A DNA stretch of 64,000 bases. It comes from Isurus oxyrinchus (Eukaryota). This document shows positions 7,787 through 60,700 of this stretch, one piece after another (position 1 is the first letter of the stretch; every line of letters starts with the position of its first letter). Location: NCBI GenBank assembly GCA_026770705.1, contig JANJGN010000153.1, positions 1,116,001 through 1,180,000 of the forward strand. Reading direction: 5' to 3'. The position numbers and the translations under genes were made by a program. The notes under the pieces are model-generated. The model was not told the DNA's origin. It saw nothing but the letters and a program-made list of their open reading frames with translations, and did not search any database.

Positions 7787-8703
7787 TCAGTGAGTAAGTT
7801 CTGTGCAGTGTGCTGTTCTGTTCAATTGTTTAGTGAACTGAACAATTAGAGGAAAGGGATGTTTGAATACATTCTTGACTGGGCTCTGAACCTGGTGATG
7901 GCAAGTTTCCGTGCAGCAACTAAGATGCTGCAGCATTAACACCAATTCCAGCACAAGCACATCTGTCATTAGAGATCGATACCCCAAATATTACATCCAG
8001 TCTATATAGAATAAAGCATTAACACTGACCATAACAAGATGGGATTCGCTGAAATTGCAAAGTATATAATAATGGTTTTCTTTCGACTTTACATTCCTGG
8101 GTCTCTGGGGATCTTCCCAGTGTTGTGAGGCCTGAGTCTCTTCCTGGCTCAGCTGCTCACTAAAATGTGTCTGACCGTGTATACAATGACCACCAGAATC
8201 AGGATAAATGGTACTACTGGATTTCGAATTTCATGTGTGAACACCATTGCTGCCCAGATCTGAGACAACCAAGAACCCCCGCATACCTAACAAAACCAGG
8301 GGACGTTCCTCAGCACAGGCCTGTTACCATAAAATACCACAACATATTCTTTGTGCAGCTCAGACCAGTCACTGTTCCCAGGGCGACAGTCGCAGTTTTT
8401 CTGGTGCGATATTTACATTTAAGTTTCCGGCAACAGATGGCTGTAAATCGATTAAAAGTGAACGTTACAGTGAACCAGACAGAACAGTTAGTGGCTGCAT
8501 AACTCAGAACGGTATGGACATTACACACAGTAATGAACTTCAGGAAATGAAGCTGCTTCTGGAAAACAATTGGAATGTGTGGTAATATCATGTCGAGGAT
8601 GATGACGAGTCGATGCACCCCTGTCATGGCCACCAGGTAGCGAGTGATACATTTCGATAGCCCCGACTTACGCCGCGACAGAATTCCGTCGTCACCAATT
8701 TAG
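7787..8703 (-). pseudogene. GPR139-like pseudogene A (exon 2, different subfamily from genes 1/2)
   Basis: Acceptor ctctgccttgcAG, then ILSRRKSGLSKCITRYLVAM, AATNCSVWFTVTFTFNRFTAICC, VVPFILILVV, HILVSS*ARKRLR, DPGM*SRKKTII, LSCCTET. Contains a frameshift, stops and deletions. Confidence 0.88.
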
Positions 8704-8949
8704 CTGCAAGGCAGAGAAACGGCAGAACAATTATAATTAGACAAGAAGCAAAGTTACCAGTTTGCTTGATGACTTCATTATGATTTCCAAATGTGCTATT
8801 ATATCTAGTAATACATTGGCAAATCATAAATAAATGTATCTGTTCCAACTTTATGTTTCTTAGGTAGCGATAACCTGACTATGAAATCGATTGGAAAACG
8901 GAAAATAATATTGAGGTGCAATACAAAATGTGTAGTCACAGGTTTTTGG

Positions 8950-10420: not shown

Positions 10421-10879
10421 CTCAAAGCTTCTTCCAATTGGTCCTGAACTTGATGGAGCTCTGACTCTTCAGGTAAACAGAGAACGTTTCAGGTTCTATT
10501 AATTTTCTCATTTTTTTCTGCCTTTTTTTCCAGATCCGAGCGATATTTCCTCTGTTTCTATCTCTCATTGCACGTGGTAGCCATTGGATTCGAAATACGA
10601 ATAGCGTCACTCATCTACCTCAGTTAGACAGACTCCTCCAATCTTACCCAGAAAGGAAAGGTCGCCACATTCAAAAGTCAGCACAGCACTTCCCACATCA
10701 CCCCCCCTCCCCCCACCGCCAAAGTGCGGTGCCAGTCGCCTTCGCCACGATGAGCCATACCCTCAGCATGGCTGTGTCCACCACATTCAGATATCGAAGC
10801 TTGTCCCCCTGCTCACCCTATTCAGCCACATTCTTTCTAACAGTGTCATTCTGCTTCCATTACCCCTCTCTACCCCATC

Positions 10880-12845: not shown

Positions 12846-12961
12846 CCCAAGGAACTAAAAGGACTGGGAGCTCAGCAGCTACGGTTGATAATTAGAAAGT
12901 GGCGGTGCAAAACAGTCAGAGCAACTATTTGGAAAAGAGTGCTAGCCTAGCTGTCGGTGTG

Positions 12962-15306
12962 TTAAATTTAAAGTTGGTCATCAAACCCGCTGACAAGGGT
13001 GGTGCTGTTGTTGTCTGGCGCACTGACCTCGACCTCGCGGAGGCTGAGCGTCAACTCACAGACACATCCTCCTACCTCTCCCTGGACCATGACCCCACCA
13101 CTGAACATCAAGCCATTGTTTCCAGGACTGTCACTGACCTCAACTCCTCTGGGGATCTCCCTCCCACAGCTTCCAACCTGATAGTCGCCCAACCTCGGAC
13201 AGCCCGCTTCTATCTCCTACCCAAAATCCACAAACGGAACTGCCCTGGTAAACCGATCGTCTCAGCTTGCTCCTGCCCCACAGAACTCATTTCTCGTTAT
13301 CTTGACTCCCTTCTCTCTCCCCTTGTCCAGTCCCTTCCCACCTACATCCATGATTCCTCTGATACTTTACGTCACATCAACAATTTCCAGTTCCCTGGCC
13401 CCAACCGCTTCCTCTTCACCATGGACATCCAATCCCTCTACACCTCCATCCCCCACCAGGATGGTCTGAGGGCCCTTAGCTTCTTCCTCGAACAGAGGCC
13501 CGAACAATTCCCATCCACCACTACTCTCCTCCATCTGGCTGAACTTGTTCTCACGTTGAACAATTTCTCCTTCAACTCCTCTCACTTCCTCCAAATAAAA
13601 GGTGTGGCTATGGGTACCCGCATGGGCCCCAGCTATGCCTGTCTCTTTATGGGGTATGTGGAACATTCCTTGTTGCAGTCCTACTCCGGCCCCCTTCCAC
13701 AACTTTTTCTCTGGTACATCGATGATTACTTCGGTGCCGCTTCATGCTCTCGTCAGGACTTGGAAAAATTTATTAATTTTGCTTCCAATCTCCACCCCTC
13801 CATCATTTTCACGTAGTCCATCTCTGACACTTCCCTTCCCTTCCTTGACCTCTCTGTCTCAACCTCTGGTGATAGATTGTCCACCAATATCCATTACAAA
13901 CCCACCGACTCCCACAGCTACCTCGACTACAGCTCCTCACACCCCGCTTCCTGTAAGGACTCCATCCCATTCTCCCAGTTCCTTCGCCTTTGTCGCATCT
14001 GTTCCGATGATGCTACCTTCAAAAATGGTTCCTCTGACATGTCCTCCTTCTTCCTTAACCGAGGTTTTCCACCGACGGTCGTAGACAGGGCCCTCAACCG
14101 TGTCCGGCCCATCTCCCGCGCATCCACCTTCATGCCTTCTCCTCCCTCCCAGAAACATGATAGGGTCCCCCTTGACCTCACTTATCACCCCACCAGCCTC
14201 TGCATTCAAAGGATCATCCTCCGCCATTTCCGCCCACTCCAGCATGATGCCACCACCAAACACATCTTCCCTTCACCCCCTTATCGGCATTCCGTAGGGA
14301 TCGCTCCCTCCGGGACACCCTGGTCCACTCCTCCATCACCCCCTACTCCTCAACCCCCTCCTATGGCACCACCCCATGCCCACGCAAAAGATGTAACACC
14401 TGCCCCTTCACTTCCTCTCTCCTCACCGTCCAAGGGCCCAAACACTCCTTTCAAGTGAAGCAGCATTTCACTCGCATTTCCCCCAACTTAGTCTACTGCA
14501 TTCGTTGCTCCCAATGTGGTCTCCTCTACATTGGAGAGACCAAACGTAAACTGGGCGACCACTTTGCAGAACACCTGCGGTCTGTCCGCAAGAATGACCC
14601 AAACCTCCCTGTCGCTTGCCATTTTAACACTCCACCCTGCTCTCTTGCCCACATGTCTGTCCTTGGCTTGCTGCATTGTTCCAGTGAAGCCCAACGCAAA
14701 CTGGAGGAACAACACCTCATCTTCCGACGAGGCACCTTACAACCTTCCGGTCTGAATATTGAATTGAACAACTTTAGGTCGTGAGCTCCCTCCCCCATCC
14801 TCACCCCCTTTCTGTTTCCCCCCTTTTTTTCCCCCAATAAATTATTTAGATTTTTCTTTTCCCACCTATTTCCATTATTTTTAAATATTTTAAAATCTTT
14901 TATGTTCCCTCCACCCCCACTAGAGCTGTACCTTGAGTGATCTACCATCCATTCTTAATTAGCACATTCGTTTAGATAATATCACCAACTTTAACTTTAA
15001 CACCTATGTGTTCTATTGTACCATTGTTGCTGACATCTTTTGATGATCTGCTTCTATCACTGCTTGTTTGTCCACACAACCACCTCTCTCCCTCTCTCTA
15101 TCTCTTCGCCTCCCACACACACACCCTAAACCAGCTTATATTTCAACTCTTTCTTGGACTAGAAATCAAGTTCTGTCGAAGGGTCATGAGGACTCGAAAC
15201 GTCAACTCTTTTCTTCTCCGCCGATGCTGCCAGACCTGCTGAGTTTTTCCAGGTAATTCTGTTTTTGTTTTGGATTTCCAGCATCCGCCGTTTTCTTTGT
15301 TTTCAT
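12962..15306 (+). mobile_element. Penelope-like retroelement (Neptune-type), 5'-truncated, disabled
   Basis: RT with IKPADKGG, FYLLPKIHK, GVAMGTRMGP, YIDD; Cys-rich linker CPRKRCNTC; GIY-YIG LVYCIRCSQCGLLYIGETKR. Stop at 13814-13816 and a frameshift near 14280. Absent from the paralogous sites at ~34705 and ~59615. Confidence 0.92.
15169..15207 (+). ncRNA. Minimal type I hammerhead ribozyme motif in the PLE 3' tail (A6U core variant)
   Basis: agtt-CTGTCGA-a-gggtc-atgag-gactc-GAAAC-GTC-aact: stem I agtt/aact, stem II gggtc/gactc, palindromic ACGT stem III, GUC cleavage triplet. PLE-associated minimal hammerheads are established. Confidence 0.7.
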
Positions 15307-16595: not shown

Positions 16596-16601
16596 TTTAT
16601 T
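16596..16601 (-). terminator. Candidate polyadenylation signal of gene 1
   Basis: AATAAA ~190 nt after the stop; also present at the homologous position in gene 2 (36002-36007) and pseudogene D (~58320). Confidence 0.4.
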
Positions 16602-19299: not shown

Positions 19300-20850
19300 G
19301 TTATCATATTGAAGATTAAATGAAGCATTTCTACTTACTAGTGATTAAATCCAATAATCTTTATAAATCATACGAAATTGACGTGAGCCTCGGATAATCA
19401 TGGCTGCAACAAGGTCTCTTTTGTTCAACTAAACTACTAAAACTCCATTGAATTTTGAAGAGTTTCTCAGTGAATTGCAATGAACCAATTTGTTCCTGCC
19501 ATACATTTAATAACTTAATTAACACGGTTATTTATTTTTAATCTGCATTTCAAAGCAATTTAAATAACTCTAGTCTTAATTAATATGAAACCTAATTGGT
19601 TGGCTTCTGAAATTTTGTTTGTACTTCTGGTACTTATCGTGTCGGATAGGATTTGCTGGCTCTTGCAATGGTGCAGAATAGCTTTTCGGCTGAAATTTCC
19701 GTTCAGACTCAGGATGCCCAGATTAAGGAATGGAAATGCACATTCTCACAATCGAGGTATGAGTGAACAGAGAGTTTACTGAAGTACCAAGTGCTTTCAA
19801 GGATTTGCAACCTGAAGCAGACTGAATGTGTAGTTTTTGCAAACTTGTATTTCGGAAAACATCAATGCAATGGAGCAATGTCTATAAAAGGGGTGGTGAA
19901 ATATCATTTTGGATCATAATTCCTGAAGATGTTGAGTAATTATTTGCATGAACTTTGAAAAAAGTAAGTTGTATTAGTCGGATAAAGTCAAACAGAATTT
20001 CCCATTCCTGTATCTGCTTGTAAGTTGCCAAGCTCTGACCACACAAAAATAATCTTTATAAGGTGACAAACACAGGCCAGTTGGCAGCTGCTGCCTCCCA
20101 TTCACAACGTTCTAATTCGAATGTAAGCGTCAAACTTTGATTGACTTGATGGGAACTGTCGGAGATAATCACAAACAGCCTTGAAAACGCTAGGTAATGT
20201 ATATAAGTTGAAGGTGGATTTTCTTTTGATCACATAGGCTGCACTAGAAAGCGAGGGAAACATTAGAAAGTCAAAGCGGTTTTGACTTATTTACAGCCCA
20301 AAAGAAACGTCAAAAATAAAGTTTCCCTTCATTAACCCTATACCTATTATTCCCTGAGCAAATCTAGTATTTATTTCACTACAATGTCATTAATTTTCAC
20401 TGAGAGTCCTAATTATCAATTCGCTTTATTGAGCTAAACAAAGATATTTAACGAAATTATCAGCACCTGAAGCTGTACTGGCCAGATCTGTAAATAAGGA
20501 AACTATTAAAACAGGAAAAAGAGAGTAATGTACGTAATTATATAATGAAGCCGCCAATGTTTGAGCAAATTAATTTTCAAAACTACTATCCAATACATTA
20601 TCAAGTTTCCAGAAATTTCCTCCAAATTAACCATTGAAATGCTCCACGAATGAACCACGCAATCCTCTACCGAATTTAATAGTGAACTATAGAAACCATT
20701 ATTCAGTATTTTATCTTTCAAATTAAATATACAAATATCAAGTATATTATCCATATAAACGCCTGATAAATTAAGTGGAGAAGTGAACATGTATATATGC
20801 TGAGGAATTGCTCTCTGCAAAAGCAATCTGCTTCTCACCTGTTACTGATT
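19300..20850 (+). mobile_element. Probable decayed hAT-type DNA transposon (copy ~38700-39950)
   Basis: AT-rich, with plus-strand remnants GAD...FGK...NVYK and QRWLTRLLALEPVLDR (39076-39429 and ~39550) resembling hAT transposase motifs; many stops. Confidence 0.3.
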
Positions 20851-22479: not shown

Positions 22480-24200
22480 TGAAGTGCTCGAACGGATGCC
22501 TTTTGCTCACATCTGTCATATATCAGGAGCAGCAGCAATCATACCTAACAACACGGCTTTGACCTGGTGAATTACAAGACAGGACACCTTGCATGCAAAG
22601 CAGCGGATGCAGCATGCAATTGACAGGTCTAATTAATCCCACCAGAAAATAACGTTAACTTAGCTCTGAAGTTCTGCTCATGTCATCTTCAATGTTGTTG
22701 GAAAATTCAATGACTCAATGGTGGCGGACAACACCAATAAACACATGGGCAATGATTGTGGAGCACAGCATATCAGTGCATATACATGGTTGAAGAACTT
22801 GCCACCATATTCAGACTGACGTGACTGGTGGATGCATCATCCCGGCCCCCTTCTGTGGATGAGAGCAACACAGAAGCCAGTTTTGAGCCAATGTGGTTCA
22901 CAACACTTGAGGTGAAGGAATGACTGAAGGAACTGCATGATGAAGAGACTATGGGTGCTGTCGGATACCAGCAATTGTACGGGAGATTAGTGCTCCTGAA
23001 TAAACCTTCCTAGAGAACCTGGTATAGTACAGCTAAAACACTGGCATGCACGTGAAAATGTGAGCAGTTGCATAGCTGGGCCTATCCACAAAAACAAAAC
23101 AGGTCAAATTCAAACAATCAAATTACCACCAAATGTGCCTAATGATCATCATGAACAAAGTGATGGAATGCGTCATGGGCATTGCTTTCAATCGCCACGT
23201 ATTCGGAAGTAACCTGCTCACTGGTGACCATTTTTTGCTTCATACGAGCTCCAGCTCTCGGTTCGGCCTTAAACCAAACATGGCCAAAAGTGCTGAATTC
23301 ATGAGGTGATTGGAGAGCGGCTCCTGTTTACATGAAGACAACAATTCACATAATGTTTTGTCAAGGAGATATATCAGGATTGGGGTCAATAAAAATAATG
23401 GGGGACCTACACATTGATTGCAGCCATACGTATCACAAAAGAAGGTTTATATTTTAAAAACAAAAAACTGCGGATGTTGGAAATACAAAACAAAAACATA
23501 ATTAGCTGGAAAAACTCAGCGCATCTGTCAGCATCGGCGGAGAAGAGAAGAGTTGACGTTTCGAGATTTATATTTTGTTTTGTTTTGAAGGTGAATCAAC
23601 TCATTCCGATGACATCACTGCACGAGATCCTATGGGCAATATCCTGAGCCAAACCAACCTGAGCTGCTTCATTAATTGACTTCTCTGCATCATATTCCCA
23701 GAGGAAGGTTTGCGGTGGGGGGCAGGGGTTGGGGTAGTGTCCGCTGACGATTGTTCAAAGTTCAACAACATTCGCAACTTAAAAGATACTGAAGGAATCT
23801 TGCCCGTGTGCATCACGTCCTGGGCAATATCCAGGCTTCTGATGAAAACTGACAAGTCATGTTAGCACCACACAACTGACAGGCATATATCACCTACAAA
23901 AACAGAGTATCCAACCAATTCTCCTAGACATTTAATGGTATTTCCATCGTTTAATTCCCGATTTTTACATCGATGGAAAAACCATCGTCTCGAAACTGTG
24001 AAAGGAAGGGCAGGTCGGAAGCTGACAATTCTGTCACGAGGACATCACCCCCTAAATATCCAAAACCTTCCCTCCATCTACAATGCACAATTCAGGAATG
24101 TAGTGGAAAACACAACAGTTTTCTGCATGAGTTCCGCTTCAATAACATTCAACAATATTGACCTAATCCAGGGCAAAGCCGGCTGCTTGATTGGCAACCA
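22480..24200 (+). mobile_element. Decayed CR1/L2-group LINE ORF2 in gene 1 intron (copies ~41620-43190, inverted ~55600-57200)
   Basis: Remnants of SRPP...TEASFEP.WFT..EVKE*LKEL, IPAIV, NYHQMCL, SADD. Confidence 0.65.
23456..23566 (-). mobile_element. Short PLE 3'-tail insertion with 10-bp TSD
   Basis: Reverse complement of the PLE tail (~15193-15305), flanked by tttatatttt at 23446-23455 and 23567-23576. Absent at the paralogous site ~42560. Confidence 0.85.
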
Positions 24201-27075: not shown

Positions 27076-27785
27076 CTTTATGAGAATCTGTCTTTCCTCC
27101 TGAGATGGGTAAACAGGATGGAATGGAACGATGTGAGCTGGAAACTACAAACCCCCGTCACCTTTGAATTAATTTCAGAAACATAAAATAAATAAAGTAA
27201 AATCACTGTCGATACTCAGAAGGAGATACCACATTAATTAAACCCAAAATATCAGGGTAAAACTGGCAGCAAAGCACTTGTAACATGGAAGAGAGATAAG
27301 CTGCTATATTTTACAGACATGAAGTCCTGTACATAAACTTCCAAACCCACTTCCGCTACTCCCTAGAAAGACAAGAGTAACATAGACTTGGGAACGCCAC
27401 CATCTAGTAGCTGCTCTTCAAACCACTCACCGCCCTGATTTGGAAAGATATCGCCGTTTCTTCACTGCTTCTGCGCCAAAGTACTGGACCTCCCCGTTAT
27501 AACACAGACTACAGCAGCTCAAAAATGCATCTCACTACCATCTTTTCAAGGGCAATTAGGGAAGGCAATAAATGCTGGCCTCGCCAGCGTCGCCCACATT
27601 CAATGAATGGGTAGAATAAGAGAGATTATCATTTTTAGCCTGAGAGTATGTAAATAAACATACATTAGACAACGATAACTTCGAGAATGGGTTTGTAAGG
27701 GTCCCATACCTGACAAAGTGAACAAACGCTATTCGCTGTGAGAAGCGCTAATTGAAGCAGAAACACTGAGTCTTTTGGAGAACAT

Positions 27786-27818
27786 GAAATGATCCGTTCA
27801 GAGAAACTCTTATTTATA
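27786..27818 (-). promoter_or_regulatory. Candidate TATA box + initiator of gene 1
   Basis: Minus-strand TATAAATA (27818-27811) with Inr-like TCATTTC 28 nt downstream, inside a block well conserved with 46760-47000. Confidence 0.5.
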
Positions 27819-29853: not shown

Positions 29854-30436
29854 ATAATAATGGTTTTCTTTCAACTTTACATTCCTGGGTCTCTGGGTCT
29901 CTTCGTACTGTTGTGAGGCCTGAGTCTCTTCCTGGCTCAGCTGCTCACTAAAATGTGCCTGACAGTGTAAACAATGAGCACCAGAATCAGGATAAATGGT
30001 ACTCTACGGGGTTTAGAATTTCAGGTGTGAACTCAATTCCTCTTGGAACCGTCACAACCAAACACCCCCCGCGTACCTAACAAAACCAGGGGACGTTGCC
30101 CAGCACAGTCCTCTTACCATAAAATGCCACAACATGTTCTTTGTGCAGATCAGCACAGTCACTGTTTCCAGGACGACAGTCGCAGTTTTTCCGGTGCAAC
30201 ATTTACATTTCAGTTTCGGACACTGGCTGCATAAATCAGAACGGTATGGATATTGAACACAGGAATCGACTTCAGGAAAAGAAGCTGCTTCTGGAAAACA
30301 ATTGGAATGTGTGTTAATATCATGTCGAGGATGATGATGAGTCGATTCACCCCTGTCATGGCCACCAGTTAACGAGTGATACATTTCGAGAGCCCAGACT
30401 TACCCTGCGACAGAATTCCCATCGTCACCAAGTTAA
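29854..30436 (-). pseudogene. GPR139-like pseudogene B (duplicate of A, 3'-truncated at the duplication junction)
   Basis: NLVTMGILSQGKSGLSKCITR*LVAM, KCKCCTGKTATVVL, PFILILVL; carries the same two stops as pseudogene A plus an extra TM3 deletion. Homology stops at ~29854. Confidence 0.85.
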
Positions 30437-43000: not shown

Positions 43001-46000
43001 AGTCAGGACTGGGAATTCCGTGGCGAGGACATCCCCGCCTGACTCTGCAAAACCTTCACTCCATCTTTAATGCACAATTCAGGAAACTACTGGAATAAAC
43101 AACAGTTTTCTGGATGAGTTCTGCTTCCATTCAACAATATTGAACTAATCCACGGCAAATCAGGCTGCTTGTTTGACAACTAATGCTTAGCTTTAATGAT
43201 TCAAGCTGTTTATCTCTAGCGATTAGCTATTCTTACTGGTTTTAAAGTTCATCTAAACCATCAGCCAAAACCTGAGGAAAATAACGTCATCGAAAACGGG
43301 AATTTAGGCTTCTCCCAATTACATTGTTGCTTTCCTAAATATCATTTGGCCACGCCTCTCCCTTCAGTGAGCACCATTCCTCAGAGCACTAAGAGCACGG
43401 GAAACTTATATTCAACCTCATGGCATTATGTAAAACACGGGCACTGAATATTCCCTTATGTTGACCACCTCCCGTTCCCCTCAGATGATGAATGAATGAG
43501 CATCCATGGACGAATCATAGAATCACAGAATCACAGTGCACAAGAGGCACTTCAGCCCTTCGAGTCTGCACTGGCATGTGCAAAACACCTGTCCTGACTA
43601 CTTAATTACATTTACCAGAAATTGACACATAGCCTTGAAGGTATTGATGCGCCAAGTGCTCATCCAGTTACTTTTTAAAGGATGTGTGGCAATCTGTCTC
43701 TACCACCCTGCCAGGCAGCGCATTAGAGACATTCAACAAACTCAGGGGAAAAAGGTTTTTCCTCCGATCCCTCCTAAATTACCTGCACCTCACGCTTAAC
43801 CTATGCACTCTTGTGGGGCATAAAACGAAGTTTTGGTGAGTGGCAAGAAACAAAAACTATTGTATGCAGGTGCTGTCATCGTCTATGACCAAGACAGGTT
43901 CGGTAGCACCACTAATGGCCGATCAGGCCGAGTCAGACATATAACCGCTGGATTGGGTCTTTGGAAGGTGATCAGGGAACCAACAAGGTGCAAAGACCGA
44001 AATGAACACGCCTCACCAAACGTCAAGCAACATATGCACCTGCCCATTACAGGAATGATAGGATAGGCCACCGCATGCTCCTTGTGCAGACGTAGTCGGC
44101 CTTCACATTGGAAAGTTCCTCCATCGTATAATGTGACACCACCTTTGTGCGATATGGGGTAGTTTTCAATCTGATCAGCAACATAAAAGTGGGCATTCAT
44201 TAGGCAATTTGTGCCATATGCTAGACCAGGGATGTGCACAACCATAATTTGCAATTCCAAACCCAAACTATCTCCAACTCCTCAATTTTCATGTGGCATT
44301 ATTATGGTGATGGTTGTGGTGCAGGACAGGCATTCCAAATTCTCCTTTTGGCGTGAGATTTTGCGCTGTTGTTATAGCTGTGCTACAATGATTGTTAACC
44401 AGATAAGTCCTTGAATTACTGGGAGTTAGCTGGGATTTTCCAATGTGGTGACATTGACGAGACTGAACCTATGCTTTCTGGAGCTTTGCCAAATGAGAAA
44501 TGATCTCACTGAATCATAGACCGTTCTTACAGGGTTCGATGTTATAGATGTTGGAGGGATGTGCCCCTGGCTGATGTGTCTAATATCATGAGAATCAGTA
44601 TCAGAATAACAGGTGTGCATTTAGGGCCGATATGAGGGGGAATTTCTTTACTCAGAGAGCAGCGAATGTTTGAAATTATCTCTCCCAACAGCGGCAGAGG
44701 TTCAGTCATTGGGAATGTTGAAGGCAGAGCGATGAACCATTTTCTAAATGTTAAATGCGTCCAGAGATATGCGATAGTGCAAGGAAATGAATTGAATGCA
44801 TGTTTACAGCCATGATATAATTGAGTAGTTGAACAAGCTCAAGTGGCCAAATTGTTAACTTGTGCTCCCACTGCCTCTGCCTCTATGCTCTTTTGTCAGA
44901 ACCTGCATGTCACTTAGCAATGCGAGATTCAAAAAGAGACGGGGAGTCCGAAAATGCTTTAATCCAACTAATTTCAATCCTCAATACAAATCAATTGTAC
45001 TTGCAAGTTTGATTTACATCAGCAGGTAGTGGAGGGCGAGAAATTGAATGGAGCAGAATATGCAGAACCAAATAACTACTTGCGGTGTGTAGGTGTTTCA
45101 AAATCGGACCACTTATGGCTCAGTCAGTTGAAATCTCCGTGCTGAGATAGATGTTTAACGATTTGCTTCCGGCGCCAGGACTTCAGAACAAAGTTCTCGG
45201 CTAATGTTCCAATGTCTTAGTAAATTAATTCTGCACTTCCACAAGCAGAACCTTTAAGAAAAGATGTCAAATTGATTCACGAGGAAAACGTAAAAAGATT
45301 CAATTCCACTTTTTCCAGGAGCAACATTGTTGTAGCCCCCTGTGTCCTGAACGAAATTTATACCTCAGCTAAAATCCACAAAATAATGCAATCCCGTCAT
45401 TGTTAACATTATGTCTATGGAAGCTTATAGAGCACAAATCACGCTTACTTTAAGTAATTCCATCAATGTGGTCGTGAACAAAGGCTGTTGAAAATCATTT
45501 GTATCAATATACAAGTGAGTAAGACTTCGGAATGTCTTAATCACACACAGCAATGTGATTCAGCCAAGTTTTCAGATTTCGTAACTTCACACTGATCTGT
45601 AAAAATATCGCTGTTAAAAAGTACGTGATCTGACAGGGAATCTGTTGCTTGCGATATTGGAAAACAGGGGAAAACCGTGAGCAAACACTTTCAAATAGTT
45701 CAAGCTGAATTCTGCAGAATGCGAATTTGCCCTTGCATTGATTTTCATAGATACCTTTTATCTCCAAGTTTAAAGACGGTCTGCACTTGGTCATGACAAT
45801 TATTGCAGAGCGCACCCACATTCAAGAAATTCCCCAAAGAATAAATACGGTGTCAACACTCTAGAACGATGCATGAAAGATGAAGCAATAGTAAGAAATC
45901 AGTTAACATGACACCTAAACTTTGATAACTCTCCAACAGAAAAGGAACGGTTTCACGTTACCAGCAACACCATTTGAGAAGAAAGTCAATATTCATTTAT

Positions 46001-46029
46001 ACGTCCACTGATTGTGTTTAGGCTCTTAC

Positions 46030-46099
46030 CAGGTACACCAACAGCTGCGAGAATCGGGTAGTAAATGGCTTCGATCTTGAGAAGTATCAGTTCTGCCAT
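46030..46099 (-). CDS. GPR139-like gene 2, coding exon 1 (MAELILLKIEAIYYPILAAVGVP)
   Basis: ATG at 46099, 70 nt ending CCTG|GTAAG, phase 1 (G+GT=Gly); 70+905=975 nt = 324 aa + stop. Confidence 0.9.
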
Positions 46100-46813
46100 T
46101 TTTATGAGAAGCTGTCTTTCCTCCTGAGATGGGTAAAGAAGGATGGAATGGAACGATGTGAGCTGGAACTTACAAACATACCCTTCTCCTTTGAATTAAT
46201 ATCAGAAACTTAAAATAAACAATGCAAAATCACTGTCGAGACTCGGAAGGAGATACCACATTAATTAACCCCAGAATATAAGGGGAAAACTCTCACCAAA
46301 GCATTCGTAACAGGGAAGAGAGAAAACCTGCTACATTTTACAGACTTGAAGCCCTGTACATAAACATCCAAACCCACGTCCGCTTCCACCTAGAAAGACA
46401 AAGGTAACATAGACATGAGAAAGCCACCACCAGTAGCTCCTCTCCAAACCCCTCACCGTCCGGATTTGGAAATATATCACCGTTCCTTCACTGCCTCTGT
46501 GTCAAAGTACTGGAGCTCCCCCTTATAACACACACTACAGCAGCTCAAAAATGCATCTCACTACCATCTTTTCAAGGACAAATAGGGATGGACAATAAAT
46601 GCTGGCCTCGCCAGCTTCGCCCACATTCAATGAATGGATAGAATAAGAGAAATTCCTATTGTTAGCCTGAGTTTGTGAAAATAAACGTACATTAGACAAC
46701 GAGAACTTCGACAATTGGTTTGTAAATGCCCCGTATCTGACAAATTGCAATAAAGGCTATTTGCTGTGAGAAGCGCTAATTGAAGCAGAAACACTGAGTC
46801 TTTCGGAGAACAT

Positions 46814-46846
46814 GAAATGATCCGTTCAGAGAACCTCTTATTTATA
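46814..46846 (-). promoter_or_regulatory. Candidate TATA box + initiator of gene 2
   Basis: Identical TATAAATA (46846-46839) and TCATTTC spacing. Confidence 0.5.
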
Positions 46847-48089
46847 CAACAGTTAAATCCCCATTAGCTCATTCATGTTCCCTGAAGAAAGAAATCAACT
46901 TCAGTCATTGAACAAACAGGTTACGTCAGTCTCTCTCCTTGTGAAAGCAACCACTTCAAAGTGAAACGTCCAATATTGGACTGATGTCTGTGGTCAAACC
47001 AGTGGAAGGGGCTGCATGTTTTGATCAATGGGTAAATATTATCGGAGGTGGTCAGGGCAGGAAAAGATTAAACCACGAGTCGCTGTTGCGGGGAAAGTCA
47101 TCACTAATTTAAATCAAAATGAAGCTTAGCAACTCAATGTTCCTGATCCTCCAGACCTAATGGGGAAATTTCAGATTTTCCCCATTGTTTTGAGTTTCAC
47201 GTCTCATTCTATGTTCCAACAAGGCACTGTGTGATCTTTGTCATTGACTTTCAAGATCCCAGATGGAAGACGTACGCTGCACTGATCGTTCCATGGATTA
47301 CGCTGGCACTGACAACTCCATCGGTTACTAGGCCTACAATCCATGGCGTCGCATAGAAATTTGCGCCCTTCCACCTGGAAGTTATAAATACACGCGGAGG
47401 ACGTGGATGGTTTGTCTTGGTTAATTATGTGATGTGTAACACAAGCTGTATGGAGAAGGAGTTTCTTTTCTCAACCAGAATCCTTCAAAATAAAGTGTTC
47501 AAGATGATTCCGATCCCATAAACGCTCAATATCCATTCCTGCAGCAGCCAATCATCCTACAGCACCCACTCACATACTCCATCCAGAGAGATGTTTGGGC
47601 TGATTGAAAAACGATTTTTTCTATAAAATTGTATGATAACTAGAGTACAATGCTGGGAGAATATTCCACGTTGAACATTGAACCCTTGGCCCTCAAATGT
47701 CTTCTGCCGACTATCATTGTCCTATTGAGTCACTCATTATAATGAACCCGAATTGTCGTCGCCTCCAGCTGTTGGTTCATGCTGCTTTTCATACATGGCC
47801 AACAGGACACGAATTCAGGGCAGGAGTAGGGCATTCGCCCTCTTGAGTCTGTGCTGCAGCTCTGAAAGAAAATGGTTTTACCTGATCGTGGCCTCAGCTC
47901 CATTTTCCTGCCTGCACTCCTCCAACTAGCGTTACACACCCTACCCCTCTACTGCACCCTGAAAACACACACATACATCCTCATGACCCCAATAACCATT
48001 ATTCATCAATAAGCTATCCAAATCACTCTTGAATATGAGGCCTCCCTGAAAAGTTGAAAAAGAGGATCTGTGTCATTTCTGCTTTTGAT

Positions 48090-49430
48090 GATGACCTGAT
48101 AAACAGAGTGATGCAAAGTGGTTCATCAGTGTGGACCCCTTTCAAGTGACCTGCGGCGCTAAGTAAGACGCTGTTCATGGCTTCAGCTCTGTTTGTCATA
48201 TACTTGGAAGCCATTCTCCACTATGCACTCAAAGAGCTTGACATAGGTTTGCATTTTCATTTCAGGACAAACGCCAACGTTTGCAAAGAGCCAAGAGCAA
48301 AACCTTGTACATAGGTGACTGAACAGCGACTGAGTGAAGTCTTATTCGTGGACCACTGTGCTTTCATAGGGCAGAATACGGAGACATCCAGCTGCGTGCT
48401 GACTCAGAATACTTTCGATTAACAGTATATCTGCAGATAGAGAAGCTGTATCAAATCACCGCTGGTCACTTGATCCAAGAAGCCACAGCTGCTCTGAACA
48501 AAACACCCCTCTGTTCTGTGAGGTAGTTTGCTAACTCGGCAGCATGCTCGCCAAGAGAACTAACAATGAGCAAATAAAAAATCACCTGACATAAATGAGT
48601 TCGGCATTGGGCAGGCTGCACTCACTGACTTCTGGAAGAAAAACATGGAGCTTCCCTCAGATGGAAGATCAAAGCCTATCAAACGGTGTTTTTTTTTATT
48701 GTGTTTTTTTATCTGCAACACCATTGGACTCATGTGGAGAATGCCAACATTCCACAGGCCTCAATAGGTTAACACGGGAAGCTGCACGACAGGTTGTCTC
48801 AAATCTAAAAGCCAAACCCAGAGATTGGAAGCTGCGTCACAGTGAATGGGGTCATAATACTCCCTTGCTAACAGCCCTGTGGCTCACCTGCACCATATGA
48901 ACCGTCCGCCCGGCACACTGGAATCCTGATGCTAAACTACACGGTGCACAGGCCTCCTTCAGGCGACAGGCACTGTGCGGATGGAAGATTGTCGACAGGT
49001 GCAAGGCTGTGATATCTGGATACCTTTGATACCAGCTAAAATTCTGCATAAACGCGGCAGATGTATGGCGGTCGCCGGACACATGTTTCAGGAAAGGGGT
49101 ACCTACCGGCAGCTGCATCTGCCACTGAGCATTCCTTGACCAAAGGGCGAACAAATATAAAGTTAGCAGTGCACGCTCAATGTCGCCGTAAAGCACGGAG
49201 GCATTAACACCAGCGAGCAGGTTGAGAATGCTTGCGATCTCTCGGCCTGGCACCATCTGGTCCAGCAAGGCTAAAACCAGTTTGCAGCTCAGCGACTCGA
49301 CAGAGAATTGGAAGGGCATAGGCACAGGAAGCAGAAGAAACCCAAAATGGGCCAAAAGCGAGCCCTACGGCGGATGGACATATAGGTCCAGAATTGGGCT
49401 TCTCAGTCATCTGAATTCTCCATGAGCCTG
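48090..49430 (+). mobile_element. Decayed RTE-clade LINE (partial copy 29070-29836, partly inverted)
   Basis: DPFQVTC..K...MASALFVIYL, SSALGRL, DLSAWHHLVQQG, TYRSRIGLLSHLNS (RTE C-terminus). Confidence 0.7.
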
Positions 49431-51720: not shown

Positions 51721-52564
51721 AGAAATCTATGAATTGCAATAACACAACTGATGTGACTTTGAACTGTGAGCCTGTGTGGCTCTTGTCCAGAGAGAGAGAA
51801 AAAATCTTCTGAATAAGTAATTTCCTAAAAATATATACATAGTATTTTGACAACATATCGATTAATGAAGATGACTGAAAAACACATTGTCCTTCATTGA
51901 ATTTTGCAGGGACATATTGCTAAGCCATTGTGCTAATAGTGAGACACCATCATTGAATATTGTTTCTATTTAATCCGTTCTAAAAAATAATGGCAAATGA
52001 GCATCCATTACAGCAAGTTTCGAATTCGAAAGTGATAAACACATATCGGGAATGATGAAACTCATCTGACCTGGAAGATCCGCACCATGTCTTCAAATCT
52101 CAATATTTCACGGTGTCTTCTTTTTCACTGGTGATGGTGCCGTCCCTGGAAATTTCGGAAGCGAGTTACAGAATTTCATCTGTAGTTGAGAGAACGGCGA
52201 GACTTGTATTCTACAAACACGTTGAATTTATTTAATACGTTCGCAGATGGATGTGTTTTCGAGTATTCAGTGAATTTAGGAATATGGTCACAGTATGGGA
52301 AGATCGATTTGAGATAGAAGATCACTTGATTGGCGGAGGAGACTCGAAAGGCCAATGCCTTTCTCCAGCTCATGTTTTATATGTTCTCCCAATGTACATG
52401 CCGTACTGGTTCTTATCCGTCGTGAAGATTGCTCGTTTGGAATGTTCTATCAAGCTTTTAGCCACCAGTGTATTGCATCCTGTTGATCGTAGAGACGAGC
52501 AGCTATGTGCCCCGATTTTGCAGAGGGTCGTTTTTATTGCTGGTGGTTTGGGTGCCAGATGAAT

Positions 52565-54745
52565 CTCCTCTGGGGATCTCCCTCCCACAGCTTCCAACCT
52601 GATAGTCGCCCAACCTGGGATGGCCCGCTTCTATCTCCTACCCAAAATCCACAAACAGAACTGCCCAGGTAGACCGATCGTCTCAGCTTGCTCCTGCCCC
52701 ACAGAACTCATTTCTCGTTATCTTGACTCCCTTCTCTCTCACCTTGTCCAGTCCCTTCCCACCTACATCCGTCATTCCTCTGACACCTTACGTGACATCA
52801 ACAATTTTCAGTTCCCTGGCTCCAACCGCGTCCTCTTCACCATGGACATCCAATCCCTCTACACCTCCATCCCCCACCAGGATGGTCTGAGGGCCCTTAG
52901 CTTCTTCCTCGAACAGAGGCCTGAACAATCCCCATCCACCACTACTCTCCTCCGTCTGGCTGAACTTGTTCTCACGCTGAACAATTTCTCCTTCAACTCC
53001 TCCCACTTGCTGCAAATGAAAGGTGTGGCTATGGGTACCCGCATGTGCCCCAGCTATGCCTGTCTCTTTATGGGGTATGTGGAACATTCCTTGTTCCAGT
53101 CCTACTCCGGCCCCCTTCCACAACTCTTTTTCCGGTACATCGATGATTACTTCGGTGCCGCTTCATGCTCTCGTCGGGACTTGGAAAAATTTATTAATTT
53201 TGCTTCCAATCTCCACCCCTCCATCATTTTCACGTCGTCCATCTCTTTCACTTCCCTTCCCTTCCTTGAGCTCTCTACCTCAATCTCTGGTGATAGACTG
53301 TCCATCAATATCCATTACAAACCCACCGACTCCCACAGCTATCTTGACTACAGCTCCTCAAACCCAGCTTCCTGTAAGGACTCCATCCCATTCTCTCAGT
53401 TCCTTCGCCTCCGTGGCATCTGTTCCAATGATGCTACCTTCAAAAACAGTTCCTCTGACATGTCCTCCTTCTTCCTTAACCGAGGTTTTCCACCCACAAT
53501 CGTTGACAGGGCCCTCAACTGTGTCCAGCCCATCTCCCGCACATCTGCCCTCACGCCTTCTCCTCCCTCCCAGAAACATGATAGGGTCCCCGTTGTCGTC
53601 ACTTATCACCCCATCAGCCTCCGCATTCAAAGGATCATCCTCCGCCATTTCGGCCAACTCCAGCATGATGACACCGCCAAACACGACTTCCCTTCACCCC
53701 CCCTTTCGGCATTTCATAGGGATCGCTCCCTTTGGGACACCCTGTTCCACTCCTCCATCACCTGCTACTCCTCAACTCCCTCCTATGGCACCACCACTTG
53801 CCCACGCAAAAGATGTAACACCTGCCCCTTCACTTCCTCTCTTCTCACTGTCCAAGGATCCAAACCCTCCTTTCAAGTGAAGCAGCATTTCACTTGCATT
53901 TCCCCCAACTTAGTCTACTGCATCCGTTGCTCCCAATGTGGTCTCCTCTACATTGGAGAGACCAAACGTAAACTGGGCGACCGCTTTGCAGAACACCTGC
54001 GGTCAGTCCGCAAGAATGACCCAAACCTCCCTGTCGCTTGCCATTTTAAGACTCCACCCTGCTCTCTTGCCCACATGTCTCTCCTTGGCTTGCTGCATTG
54101 TTCCAGTGAAGCCCAACGCAAACTGGAGGAACAGCACCTCATCTTCTGACTAGGCACCTTACAGCCATCCGGTCTGACTATTGAATTCAACAACTTTAGG
54201 TCGTGCGCTCCCTCCCCCATCCCCACCCCCTTTCTGTTTCCCCCTTCCTTTTCTTTTTTTTCCAATAAATTATATAGATTTTCCTTTTCCCAGCTGTTTC
54301 CATTATGAAAAAAATATATATTTTTTTACATCTTTTATGCTCTCCCCACCCCAACTAGAGCTATACCTTGAGTGCCCTACCATCCATTCTTAATTAGCAC
54401 ATTCGTTTACATAATATCACCATCTTTAACTTTAACACCTATGTGTTCTTTTGTACTATTGTTGTTGACATCTTTTGATGATCTGCTTCTATCACTGCTT
54501 GTTTGTCCATACAACCACACTCCCACCCAACCTCTCTCTCTCTCTCCGCCCCCCACACACACACCTTAAACCAGCTTATATTTCAACTCTTTCTTGGACT
54601 CGAACTCAAGTTCTGTCAAAGGGTCATGAGGTCTCTAACAGTCAACTCTTTTCTTCTCCGCCGATGCTGCCAGACCTGCTGAGTTTTTCCAGGTAATTCT
54701 GTTTTTGTTTTGGATTCCCAGCATCCGCAGTTTTTCTGTTTTTAT
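52565..54745 (+). mobile_element. Penelope-like retroelement (same family), 5'-truncated, ORF largely open
   Basis: 509-aa RT + GIY-YIG frame (52620-54149) closely similar to the 12962 copy. Premature TGA at 54147 where the other copy has CGA. Same 3' tail. Confidence 0.92.
54609..54647 (+). ncRNA. Degenerate hammerhead motif in second PLE
   Basis: agtt-ctgtcaaa-gggtc-atgag-gtctc-taaca-gtc-aact; the core boxes are mutated relative to 15169-15207. Confidence 0.45.
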
Positions 54746-57700
54746 ATTAAAGTAGAATGCTTGACTGGCATCAGAAACATCACCATAAACAGTCCAGATG
54801 AAAATTGCAGATTTGGGGATAGACTGGGCTTGGGGTTACAAATTATGGTTCTGCACAAATCAGCTGCAGCTAATGGTCCACAATGCCTCATGAATGCCCA
54901 CTTTTGATTTGTTAATCAAGGTGAAACCTACCCCATTTAGGACAATGGTTGTCTCACACAATACGATGGAGAGAAGCCCTAATGTGAAGGCGGAATTCAT
55001 CTGTACAAGGACGTGCAGTGGTCTATCCTATCAATTCTTAAATGGACAGCTGCACCTGTGGTGGTTAGGTTTGTGGAGCGAATTCACTTAGAGGTTTGCA
55101 CCTGATTGGTTCCCTGACCATCTGCCAAAGACCTAATCTAGCATATATCTTTATGACTCTGCCAGCTCGGACATTATTGATGCTTTTGATCTGCTCTTGC
55201 TCACAGACTTCAAGGTGTCCGATGGAAAGCATTTTTTTCTTTTCTCTCCCTAAAACTTCTGCCATTGATGATCATTGATTCATCTGCTGAGGTGAACGGG
55301 AGCTGGTCAGCAGAAGGGGACATTCATTGCCCATGTGTTACATGATGTCATGAGATGTCACTTAAGTGCCACGTGTACTGAAGGATATGAAAAATGGTGC
55401 ACGCTGGAAGTGTTGCAAAATGGTATTTAGGAAAGCAGTAATAGAGTTGAGCATACCGACTAATTCGGTGGATATATTACGTTTTGGATAAGATAATTTC
55501 ACTCAGATGTTTGCTCATGATTCGTATGAACTTTCAAAGCAGGAAGATGAATTATTCAGTTAAGGGTAAACAGCTTGAATCATTAAATTTATGGAATGAT
55601 TGCAAATCAAGCAATCAGCTTTGTCCTGGGTAAAGTCAATATCCTTGAATTCTACTGGAGCATACATCATCTAGACAGGTGTAACGTATCTCATCACATT
55701 CCTGATTTGTGCATTTTAGATGGAGGTAATGTTTTGGAGAGTCAGGGGGTGTGTTGCTCACCACAACATTTTCAGATTCTGACCTGCCCTTCGAGTCACA
55801 GATTCCAGTCAATGGTTTGTCCAAGGATGTTGAAAACGGGGGCTTAAGCGATGGTAATGCCAGTAAATGTCAAGGCTAATTTGTTGGATGTTCATTTGGT
55901 GCAGATGGACATTTCTTGTCAATTTTGCGGCTCGAATATTACTGATCATTCTTCAGCACAAGTCTGGCTGTTGCCCAGGACTTGATGCACATGGGCACAG
56001 ATTTCATCAGCATCTGTTGAATCGTGAATGGTGCGGAACTTTTAACAATTCTCAGCGGATATAACGTCCCCCCACTTTCCCACAGCCTCCCCACCACACC
56101 AGCGTCCTACTGTGTTTCAAATGGAGAGAGCATAATTGATTCAGCAGCTAAAGATGGGTGGGCTCAGGACACTGCCCTCAGTCTGTCGTCCAGTTATGTC
56201 ATGGGGCTAAGATGATGCACCTGCAAAAGAAAATAAAAATGAAAAAATAAATTATTTTTGCTTTGTATGAGTTCACTCAGTAGGGACGTTTCCCCTTATT
56301 CTTATTGACCACAATTCTTATACCCCTCCTTGATACCACATTGTGATAACTGATGCATTGATATAGTTCACATCCACTCTCTGCTCATCTTATAAGTATG
56401 GCACCTGTGTCCATGCTTCGAGGAAGGCCGAACCAGGAGTTCAGCTCGCACGAAGCAAAAAGTGAGCGTCAGTGAACAGTTTGCTGCCGAGTATTTGGCG
56501 ATTGAAAGCATTTTCTATGATACTTTTCATCACATTGATCTTGATTAAATGTAGGCTGATGGGGCTGTACTTAGATTGGTTGGATTTGTCGTGATTATTT
56601 GTGGATAGGCATACCTGTGAAAATTCTCAAAGTTTCTCATAGATGCCAAAGGTTCAGATGCGCCATACCAGCATCGATAGGAAGGCTGATTCAGGAGCAG
56701 TGATCTCCCGTACTATTGGCATTATCTAAATGGACCCATAACCTCTTCATCATCCAGTTCCTTCAGTCATTCCTGAAATCCGAGTGCTGAGAATCACATT
56801 GTATGAAGACTGGCATCTGTGATGCTTGTCATCCATAGGTGGAGGCCGGATGGTTCATCTACCCGTCAGTTCAGGGTGAATGTGGCTGCAAATTCTTCTG
56901 CCATGTATATGCACGGGTGTGCTGCGCTCCACAGTCATTGCTGATGCGGATATTGCTGGAGAGCAAGTGAGGTGCAGAATTTGACATCACCATTAAAGGT
57001 GACTGTGACAGGACTTCAGAGCTGAGCTATCGTTATTTGGTTGGGGGATCAATGAGCCCTGTCTTTCTCATGCTGAATAAGCTTTTCTGCTTGCAAGTAG
57101 CCCGGGCTTGAAATTCACCAGGTTAAGCCGTGTTGTTAGCTTCAATTGCTGCTGTATTGGACATGGGGCAGGTGTCGGCAACGTTCCTTCGTTTGTGCAT
57201 TTGACCTCAAAATCGTGGAAGGGAAACAGCAGAAGAGTGATGGGAACACTCTTAATTACAAAATCCTTTCTGAGTCACGCATCAAGCTGACTTGCAGATA
57301 CATCAACGTTCAATTACTGTCATTGGATCAAAAACCTGGAAATCAATCGCTCCCAGCAAATAATGCTAAGAGTCATGGGTTTTACGAGTCTGGCCAATTT
57401 GTAGTGAATTAAGCTGTAGAGGATATTAATTTAAACATCGGTGTATTAGGAGTTAGATCTTTATCGTCAGGTAATTGGCAATTCGTAATTTTACTTTTCT
57501 GAACACAGATTAGTCTACAGACTCAAATCTTTTTGCCCAACATGGACAACCTTTATCGCAATTTTATGCACTTGGTACCCAGAAAAAAAAAAATCAATTT
57601 TAAGCTTCACCTTCAAATCACAGATGTTGTCATTGAGACACAAGCGATTGTGTCCTAAAACATACATTTTTCATTTCTGCTGAGTGGGCCGCACTTGAAT

Positions 57701-60700
57701 TTATTACCCTTACCTTGACCCCATGTGTTCCATTCATTCTAATCTTGTTGCTAAATGTTTTGACAGCTAGGCATATTTTGGCAGCCAGTAACGTTCGCAG
57801 GGGTCTCCATAGTTGCAGTCATGGAGAACATCACAAGGACGCTGAAATAAAAAGCCAAAAAAAGTCCATTATTTTACTCTTCAGTATTACCGGCAGCTAT
57901 ATATTGCTCTGGACAACACCTGTTATATATATTATCTCTCTGCATGTAACAATCACGTCAAATTCTGAGGCAAATGAGCTTAAGTCAGTTGGATTCATGC
58001 TAGGGGACCTCAGTTGCTGCACAAATGCATTCATTTATGTGCTGACACAGGCTAGGTTTAGGGAGGAGCTGAAGAGTGGAATGCAGTACCTTGTGAAACT
58101 GAGCGCAAAACTATGCAAATTACAGTGGATAACCCATTGACCTGTACAGGCGGACATAAACATTATGCCCTGAAACAACTCATGTTAGAATAACCCTTGT
58201 ACCAACATTTAATATTCTACTAAAAAAGGTTTCCTACTTAACATGCTCTGTTATAATATAATGAACTATTATTCACAGTATACAGTAATCAATGGTGAAT
58301 TGTAAGTTGTGATAATAATAATAAATAAGAATAATAATAATACTGAACAGCTCCTGTTAGCGTTGCAGAGTTTGAAAAAAATGAATTATGATGCCAGGTT
58401 TTGACAGCCTTGTGTTCATTGGAACAGTTGTTCTGATCAAAAAGAGAAGACCCAAACATCACCAGCTGGATCATGACAACTCGACAAATGTAACATAGAC
58501 AAACATGGCAATTTTCCTAGGACGTCTATTCTGGGGCAATTAGTACATAGGGGGATTTTTCAGAACATGTTTCACGAAGTCTGGCACCTTTCAAATATCG
58601 AACAGTTGCGCAATGAGCTTCTTCTCAGATTTCCATTTTCCGCACATGATTAAAACAAGGAAGGCCTGGTCATCACGTGTTTTGTGAAAGGATGGGCAGT
58701 GGCGCAACTGATCACTCATTACCATGATTTATCGGACTGCGAGTCGACTCCATATATTGGATTCTGTACATTTAAATCCGATTTCCCTCCGATTCATTTG
58801 AATACGCAAATGGCTCATTCTTGTTTTTTTCACGATTACTGAGGCTACTTCCTCTCCACATGCTCATTCACAACACTCTCTGTTTCGTGTTATCCGGTCC
58901 TTTCACATACGCACAGCCACCAAATGGCTGTTATCATAATTCTCGAATATTTTCATATGTATGACTTGAAATCCACTCATCAATATAGCGAGTGACGCTT
59001 CAGCCAGGTATCTGCACGAATTCCCAGCCAAGAAACGTCTGATCCCACATGGCCCTACCATTAATTTCTTTTCCTGTATACCTACGCATATTGAATGTGA
59101 AAAATTGTAATGTAATTCTTCTCGTCGCATATTCTTATAATTTACTTAACTTAAATGCTATTCGAAGAATGCAACCATAGAAGGTCTACAGCACAGAAGC
59201 AGATCATTTGGCCCCTCATTTCCTTATTGTCTCACTTAAGGAAGATGCAGCCGGCAGTCACTCTGCCGGCTTCTCCCTGTTATGTGGGTCATTCGCTTTT
59301 CTCAGATATTAATCCAAAATTGTCTTGACGATTCCTGATTAACCACCCTAATCACCCGGGAAAATGATTGTCCAGAACAACTGCCAATTAACGTTGCATT
59401 AAATAGAAAACTAGAACCGCTTTCCTTGAATAAATGAACAGTAAAAACACGACAAGTTCGGTCATGGCATGAGGGGCATAGTTGGCAAGAAAAACAATTA
59501 TTGTCAATCTTTAACTGCTCTTACAGAAAAGCATACTTGATCCGTCTTTTCGAGCAGCTACATGTGTTTCTGACATCTTCACACTGGCTGCTTAGGGCCT
59601 GAATTACTAAATGCCCACACCGCCGGCTCAGCTACCACTCTTTTCTAAATGTTAGCTCTGGCTTTTCGCCATGTACACTTTCTAAATATACATCTCGACT
59701 GCTCAGCTCCCAGTCATTTTAGTTCCTGAGAGAACATCAGTTCTTCAGGGTCCAAGGCTCAACGATGTTTAGCTCCATCATCAATGACCTTCTCTCCATC
59801 TTAAGGTCGGAATTGGGGATGTTCGCTGATGATTACGCAATGCTCAACACAATACGTGACTCCTGAAATCATGAGGTTGTCCATGGCCAAATGCAGCATG
59901 TTCAGACTTTGGCTGAGGAGTGGCAAAGGACATTGAAGCCATACAAGTACCAGGCAATGAATATCTCCAAAGAGAAAATCAAACCATCGACAGCCAACAT
60001 TCAATGGCATTACCATCGCTGAAAGTCGCACTATCAGCATTGTAATGCTTATCATTGACCAGAAACAGAACTGGATTGGCCATATAAACAGAACGTCCAC
60101 AATTGCAGTTCAGAGGCATGGAATCCTGCGGCGACTCCCCAATTCCATTCCACCATCTACACGCCAAACGATAGTACTGTGATGATATACTCCCCACTTG
60201 CTTGGGTGTGTACAGCTCCAAAACAGCCAAGAAGCACGACAGCATCTGGGACAAATCAGTCGTAGATTGACACCACATCAATAAACGTTGACTCCCTCCA
60301 CAACCGACGAAAAATAGCAGCAGTGTGTACTATCTGAAAGGTGCCATTGCCTGAATTTCCGAAGTCACCTTTGACATTACAGTCCAAACCCACGACCGGA
60401 GCATCTAGAAGAATAATGGGCAGCAGATTCATGGGAGCTTAACGATTTGGATGTTCCCCTCCAAGCTACTCACCAGTCTGTTTGCAAAGATATCCCTGTT
60501 CCATCATTGTAATTGGTTCAAATTCCAGGAACTCCCTCCCTAAGAGCACTATGGCTGCGATTCAAGAAGGGAGCTCACCACCATATTCTCAAGGGTACCT
60601 ACGTCTGGGCAATAAATGCTGTGCGAGTGATTGACGCCAAAACCCCCTTGTTCAATAATAATAAATTATCATTGTCTCCGTGGCTGCACAGCTACTGCGC

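Follow-up and report, generated by a model that had tools for sequence, protein, structure and literature searches.

The question raised by a 64,000 nt stretch of the genome of the shark Isurus oxyrinchus (GCA_026770705.1, JANJGN010000153.1:1,116,001-1,180,000, forward strand; hereafter the window, meaning this whole stretch) is what is represented by its cluster of intact and broken genes for G protein-coupled receptors (GPCRs) resembling GPR139. The genes belong to a large family of class A GPCRs of cartilaginous fishes, in one part of which the ligand pocket is highly variable and the cytoplasmic face nearly fixed. The reading preferred here, with a probability of about 0.45, is that of a many-ligand receptor repertoire, most likely of chemosensory cells sampling the outside world.

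Receptor gene copies in the window

The DNA of the window is repeat-rich, with a GC content of 42-43% and no N. Receptor copies were located by tBLASTn and a profile search in all six frames, and six class A GPCR copies were found between 7787 and 58140, two of them intact (A and B) and four broken (C1, C2, D and E). This agrees with an initial reading made from the sequence only, which had proposed six family members, two intact genes and four pseudogenes, within ~50 kb. The copies are as follows, with TM standing for transmembrane helix, ICL for intracellular loop and ECL for extracellular loop.

Gene A exon 1, 27075-27006 (-): has the start codon and codes for a short N-terminus and the first half of TM1; GT donor; exon-1 profile 41 bits
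Gene A exon 2, 17695-16788 (-): intact, from the second half of TM1 to the stop; 7tm_1 E-value 1.7e-19
Gene B exon 1, 46099-46030 (-): GT donor; exon-1 profile 36.9 bits
Gene B exon 2, 37099-36195 (-): intact; 7tm_1 E-value 2.6e-23
C1, 8703-7787 (-): pseudogene of exon 2, C subfamily, with several frameshifts and in-frame stops
C2, 30436-~29831 (-): copy of the already dead C1, ending after ICL3 at the duplication junction
D, 57640-58140 (+): inverted A-type copy of which ECL2 to the stop (the TM5-TM7 half) remains, its frame still open
E, 50354-~50070 (-): heavily decayed fragment from the acceptor to TM3, splice acceptor intact

Genes A and B encode stop-free proteins of 325 and 324 amino acids which are 82% identical, and in both a first exon of 70 bases is separated from a large second exon by a phase-1 GT..AG intron (9310 bp in A and 8930 bp in B). 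Two open reading frames within the introns (20506-20841 and 39450-39884) were considered as exon 1 and dropped once the true exon 1 had been located. Upstream of exon 1 (~27470-28060 in A), several 150-base intervals show 92-93% identity between A and B over a background of ~82%; this stretch is a possible promoter or non-coding exon.

Among the broken copies, C2 has lesions of its own (one more stop, a 58-nt deletion and a 2-nt insertion) and D has lost the 5′ half of exon 2 by deletion. Copy E is the weakest of the six, with a best tBLASTn E-value of ~3e-6 to 1e-5 (4 kb target) and, by blastn, 65% identity at E-values of 1e-7 to 2e-10. Searches of the window for exon 1 of C1, C2, D and E gave only the exons of A and B.

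Size and distribution of the family

With exon 2 of gene A as query, 2591 proteins were retrieved at E ≤ 1e-10 among 4578 candidates, and the best 120 of these 2591 are all from sharks or rays, are 48-71% identical to the query and are nearly all labelled “probable GPR139”. The C1 fragment retrieved 227 proteins among 314 candidates, the best 120 being likewise all elasmobranch. The A-type and C-type lists of 120 have no protein in common, and in phylogenetic trees A, B and D fall into a well-supported clade separate from that of C1 and C2, which confirms the proposal that at least two subfamilies are present. The C-subfamily proteins (P0121-P0240) have a longer N-terminus and several of them carry repeated short motifs bearing glycosylation sequons.

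Among the 240 listed matches, whose species labels were transcribed by hand, 133 are from the horn shark and 52 from the sharpnose sevengill; these figures are protein models taken from the top of each list and so represent lower bounds. The C subfamily is heavily represented in the horn shark (90 of the 120 listed matches). Clustered by core identity, the 133 horn-shark proteins fall into 112 groups at the 90% level and into 129 at 99%, and in 130 of the proteins the TM2-TM7 core is near-complete. Since the entries lie on contigs of many sizes, more than one cluster must be present. The horn shark thus has at least 112-133 members, which exceeds the V2R count reported for any of eleven cartilaginous fishes: 8-43 V2R genes per species, besides 6-13 olfactory receptor (OR), 3-5 TAAR and 2-4 ORA genes (PMC10116579). 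Subfamilies are common to sharks and rays in the trees, and one chimaera member of the family was found. A large lineage-specific family, as had been suspected at the outset, is therefore supported, copy number having been assessed through relatives and found to be far from a few. The database name “probable GPR139” is best regarded as a mislabel for a large cartilaginous-fish clade.

Class assignment and relation to GPR139

Assignment to class A follows from the 7tm_1 profile, which scores gene A at 70.8 bits and gene B at 83.2 bits (cut-off 30.5). Structure prediction for exon 2 gave a bundle of helices (mean pLDDT 77.7) that matches class A receptors at a TM-score of ~0.7. Activation motifs are retained in nearly all of the 120 A-type relatives (D2.50 in 120, R3.50 in 120, W6.48 in 119, N7.49 in 120 and Y7.53 in 120), with positions 6.50 and 7.50 being mostly Thr instead of Pro; these generic numbers were counted from motif anchors and not from a structure.

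Human GPR139 is the top match with a solved structure but a weak one, scoring 76.5 bits against the family profile and showing ~68 identities in 277 aligned residues (~25%, counted by eye). Higher scores were obtained by proteins of salamander (222 bits), coelacanth (203), silverside (185), amphioxus (141) and anchovy (135), and chemokine receptors scored 38-45 bits. In the fold search GPR139 appeared at rank 35 with little separation among peptide GPCRs, making this search uninformative on the ligand.

The Trp/Phe site of GPR139 is formed by F3.33, H5.43, W6.48 and N7.38 (PMC5430874), while R6.51 is reported to be unique to GPR139 and GPR142 among human class A receptors, with its positive charge being critical (PMC8807744). 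At 3.33, 5.43, 6.48 and 7.38, gene A has Y, T, W and F and gene B has Y, V, W and I, so that W alone is kept and F is replaced conservatively. Position 6.51 is Pro in both, with Arg in 12 of the 120 A-type relatives, and some A-type members (48 of 120) keep His at the site aligned with H187.

Taken with the low identity and the profile scores, the absence of R6.51, H5.43 and N7.38 supports the earlier view that A and B are not GPR139 orthologues, and among the relatives a one-to-one correspondence with GPR139 was not seen. The accompanying suggestion of an amino-acid receptor is weakened at this locus by the same three missing residues.

Ligand pocket and cytoplasmic face

Across 22 pocket positions, likewise numbered by counting from motif anchors, the 120 A-type relatives have a mean entropy of 2.34 bits. 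The values are 1.47 for the rest of the outer TM (p = 0.0003) and 0.57 for the inner TM, and at six key sites 100 different combinations are seen in the 120 proteins. A low-copy lineage of related receptors, described below, served as the control (119 proteins; overall identity 0.61 vs 0.64), and here the pocket entropy was 0.74, with 11 combinations among 117 proteins. For random pairs matched at 60-70% non-pocket identity, the pocket identity was 0.28 in the A-type set (2331 pairs) vs 0.79 in the control (738 pairs), a comparison in which the A set mixes paralogues, the control consists of presumed orthologues, the pairs are non-independent and control position 5.39 is lost to an alignment gap. 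In the A set, though not in the control, variability is greater in the pocket than at the outer-TM positions next to it.

The cytoplasmic face (ICL1, ICL2, inner TM3, TM6 and TM7, and helix 8) is nearly fixed across members. It includes five cysteines in ICL1 and ICL2 (residues 37, 42, 113, 114 and 122 of gene A), conserved in 112-120 of 120 proteins and in both subfamilies, which may be a possible acylation or metal site.

Selection on A, B and D

Between A and B the ratio of nonsynonymous to synonymous substitution rates (dN/dS) is 0.47 (bootstrap 95% confidence interval 0.31-0.72), with a dS of 0.21 that is in line with an intron divergence of 0.19; both genes have been under purifying selection since an old duplication. 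The ratio for D is 0.46-0.49, pointing to purifying selection before deletions took its 5′ half. Constraint is unevenly distributed along the A and B proteins, in a division like that seen across the A-type relatives, the inner TM and intracellular loops having a dN/dS of 0.28 (0.15-0.44; 15 of 126 residues differ) and the outer parts of TM5, TM6 and TM7 one of 1.19 (0.62-1.97; 14 of 38 residues differ, Fisher p = 0.001 vs inner).

Phylogeny and the low-copy lineage

A quick tree of 90 rows was followed by one of 55 rows with 200 bootstraps, 35 rows having been dropped as long branches or redundant members. A motif scan revealed no true GPR139 or GPR142 among the 528 proteins available, so that the trees are without them and profile scores serve as the substitute. 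In the 55-row tree, the 37 cartilaginous-fish rows are split from all others by a single branch in 100% of the 200 bootstrap trees; the drawn node for the cartilaginous-fish members has support of 90/91 and the inner 35 rows of 98/99. The sister of the shark expansion is a salamander gene, with support of 100/100. This sister receptor is strongly conserved in three salamanders (P0337, P0390 and P0393) and has Lys at 6.51; the homologue searches made returned no further bony-vertebrate members of its branch.

The low-copy lineage is separate. The best 120 of its 159 matches come from sharks, bony fish, coelacanth, amphibians and reptiles, most named species having a single entry there, and mammals and birds are missing from these 120. 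It keeps a charged pocket (D3.29, R6.51 and D7.36), R6.51 being present in 118 of 119 proteins, and it may be a deorphanisable amino-acid-type sensor. Its rows include P0346, P0423, P0476 and P0467, and two records bear the name of TMEM183A isoforms, a hint that the gene lies beside or within TMEM183A. Extra GPR139/142-related subtypes, GPR210A/B, have been described in fishes and coelacanth (PMC6504862), in a paper that makes no mention of sharks.

As a basic residue occupies 6.51 in the salamander gene (Lys), amphioxus (Arg) and the low-copy lineage (Arg), the ancestral pocket was probably GPR139-like and charged, and this charged pocket was probably released in the shark expansion.

Duplication history and mobile elements

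Self-comparison of the window revealed a tandem duplication of ~21 kb (8043-29455 vs 29831-48455) at 77-83% identity, together with a third unit at 68-73% identity, and so upheld the view that the genes spread via tandem and inverted duplication. The units are as follows.

Tandem unit 1, 8043-29836: part of C and gene A
Tandem unit 2, 29831-48695: C2 and gene B
Third unit, 54749-62093: inverted, older and partly deleted, bearing D

Three in-frame stops and one frameshift are common to C1 and C2, which therefore represent a single gene death that was copied passively, C2 being truncated by the duplication breakpoint. While the four broken copies counted as pseudogenes from the sequence are all present, they amount to only three independent deaths (C, D and E), since C1 and C2 died once. 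The duplications are old, as indicated by an intron divergence of 0.185-0.196 for A and B and 0.36-0.37 for the D unit. At the duplication junction, a 246-base segment (29591-29836) repeats the distal end of unit 2 (48452-48695) in inverted orientation, which suggests a junction of the template-switch type.

Two retroelements with reverse transcriptase and GIY-YIG domains, which we take from this domain pair to be of the Penelope class, lie at 12947-15306 (+) and 52563-54745 (+); they are 92% identical and one of them has an open frame of 528 codons. A 111-base Penelope end fragment (23455-23566) is situated inside the intron of gene A. Both the first element and this fragment are missing from the sister unit and must thus have inserted after the duplication. 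Sequences at 62223-62645 (-), 33886-34308 (-) and 6328-7013 resemble decayed long interspersed nuclear elements (CR1/L2-type), with no Pfam match for the two that were scanned. Of 19 further open reading frames of the window compared with Pfam, just one gave a match, to a Penelope GIY-YIG piece, and Rfam and tRNA scans of the window gave 0 matches.

Possible function and alternative explanations

Under the chemosensory reading, one ancestor in the group related to GPR139, GPR142 and FMRFamide receptors would have given rise to the cartilaginous-fish family, which has turned over by tandem and inverted duplication followed by pseudogenisation. Because the cytoplasmic face is almost fixed, its members probably drive one shared G-protein pathway. 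The pocket residues of the A-type receptors have been reshuffled, basic 6.51 included, and each receptor could respond to its own range of short peptides or small molecules soluble in water, with the same cascade downstream. The closest precedent, by analogy, is offered by the nematode srw genes, which are related to FMRFamide/myosuppressin receptors, show fast turnover and have been proposed as sensors of environmental peptides (PMC2576165), and from it the likeliest site would be chemosensory cells of the nose, oral or gill epithelium, skin or gut. A stronger version, put forward only tentatively, is that of a major chemoreceptor family, independent of srw and sparse in chemosensory neurons, that in some species outnumbers OR, TAAR, V1R and V2R genes together.

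Several points weigh against a chemosensory repertoire. In the catshark, OR genes are mostly highest in expression outside the nose (PMC11979771), so that the sequence pattern alone leaves the organ unfixed. The repertoire signature is not family-wide but belongs to the A-type part only: the pocket of the C subfamily is conserved (entropy 0.65, 31 combinations among 119 proteins, matched identity 0.76) and its variation sits in the extracellular loops. The original likening of this turnover to OR, V1R, TAAR and T2R repertoires agrees with a large family that shows tandem duplication and pseudogenes, while the diversified pocket above a fixed cytoplasmic face is seen in the A-type receptors and not in the C subfamily. 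The interval of the outer-TM dN/dS spans 1, and relaxed constraint fits it as well as positive selection does. Finally, fast-evolving GPCR clusters also serve immunity, the mammalian FPRs and MRGPRs being surveillance receptors of this kind.

All of the sequence evidence fits equally an immune or tissue-surveillance repertoire, whose receptors, on leukocytes or barrier cells, would recognise peptides and metabolites that come from microbes, parasites or damage, and catshark ORs are reported to be highest in organs such as the spleen (PMC11979771). This is nevertheless considered less likely, as kinship to chemoattractant receptors does not stand out (76.5 bits for GPR139 against 38-45 bits for chemokine receptors) and no immune gene was recognised among the 19 further open reading frames scanned. 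Endogenous or conspecific signals, such as neuropeptides, reproductive peptides, pheromones or gamete signals, would suit the conserved C-subfamily pocket as one ligand class, and the fold search yields peptide GPCRs, if with little separation. More than 100 receptors per genome would, however, require a matching ligand family, and we know of none. GPR139 itself is phylogenetically tied to MIP/sex-peptide, proctolin and FMRFamide receptors (PMC12208981), which speaks for such signals, but in nematodes it is the peptide receptors that stay one-to-one and srw that turns over (PMC2576165), and on balance this explanation seems improbable.

Genomic drift, in which a small two-exon gene in repeat-rich DNA prone to duplication was amplified segmentally, with a few copies retaining an ancestral role, the others tolerated or in decay and the outer half simply under less constraint, would account for the death of four of the six local copies, the duplication of an already dead gene, the Penelope-type insertions and junction inversion in the window, the high multiplication of the C subfamily despite its conserved pocket, and an outer-TM dN/dS near 1. 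It is no more probable than the preceding explanation: A and B have both been kept under purifying selection since an old duplication, the pocket exceeds the neighbouring outer-TM positions in variability in the A set and not in the control, 130 of the 133 listed horn-shark cores are near-complete, and subfamilies are common to sharks and rays. Next to no weight can be given to plain GPR139 co-orthologues still sensing Trp/Phe. The top solved-structure match, the name borne by nearly all of the 240 listed matches, and the residues retained (W6.48 in 119 of 120, His at the H187-aligned site in 48 and R6.51 in 12) would favour them, but only ~68 of 277 residues are identical to human GPR139, the profile gives it 76.5 bits against 135-222 for the salamander, coelacanth, teleost and amphioxus proteins, and Pro occupies 6.51 in A and B, a position whose positive charge is reported as critical (PMC8807744).

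Literature and significance

No published description of a GPR139-like expansion in cartilaginous fish was found, in a search that covered subscription journals thinly. The term “GPR139” is absent from the main text of PMC11979771, PMC8455134, PMC10116579 and PMC5818035, as is “GPR” from bioRxiv 2022.10.17.512540, and the whale-shark genome supplements (PMC8455134) yielded a single GPR142 orthogroup label and nothing further. The large receptor family is real and apparently undescribed in the literature, although public genome annotations already contain its genes under a name that misleads.

Cartilaginous fishes have been reported to have a relative paucity of GPCRs (PMC8455134), and the olfactory repertoire of sharks is described as very small although their olfactory organs are large (PMC8455134, PMC10116579). 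More than 100 receptors in at least one shark alters the shark GPCR count, whatever the organ. If chemosensory, they would be a further vertebrate chemoreceptor family, making the puzzle of shark smell testable with existing RNA-seq, and a major chemoreceptor family, if true, would overturn the view that sharks smell via only a few dozen receptors. If immune, they would constitute a novel repertoire of innate sensors in the most ancient lineage that has adaptive immunity. The family is also a source of naturally occurring pocket variants of the GPR139 fold, which is a drug target.

Comparison with known receptor systems

The shark family shares with GPR139 and GPR142 the class A fold, W6.48 and a similar pattern in TM1-TM3 and TM7, but has more than 100 copies (horn shark) where GPR139 and GPR142 have one. 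Cys is present at 3.25 in 116 of 120 proteins and in ECL2 in 118, the aligned human GPR139 chain being without Cys 3.25, and the family differs from GPR139 in its TM7 motif NTxxY, Thr 6.50 and the five conserved cytoplasmic cysteines. The low-copy lineage, whose proteins are the next-best relatives, likewise has a short N-terminus and Cys 3.25, but sharks carry it separately from the family.

With nematode srw the family has in common that a large birth-and-death family arose out of FMRFamide/myosuppressin-type receptor stock, and its Atlas neighbours include clusters bearing Srw. However, neither A nor B matches the srw profile (PF10324) at E ≤ 0.01, and the simplest view is that the family expanded independently in a vertebrate.

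Nor are A and B members of the OR, TAAR, V1R/ORA or T2R families. The OR profile 7tm_4 gave 17.2 bits for A, below its cut-off of 27, and no match for B, and the V1R/ORA and T2R Pfam profiles gave no match for either at E ≤ 0.01. OR genes have a single coding exon, unlike the two of the shark genes. The trait of TAARs is the aminergic D3.32; this position is Ile in A and B, and Asp is outside its seven commonest residues in the 120 relatives. It is in its general organisation that the shark family resembles the OR, TAAR, V1R, V2R and T2R repertoires, which are characterised by tandem clusters, pseudogenes, a conserved cytoplasmic side and a variable pocket, all of which it displays, the last of these in its A-type members.

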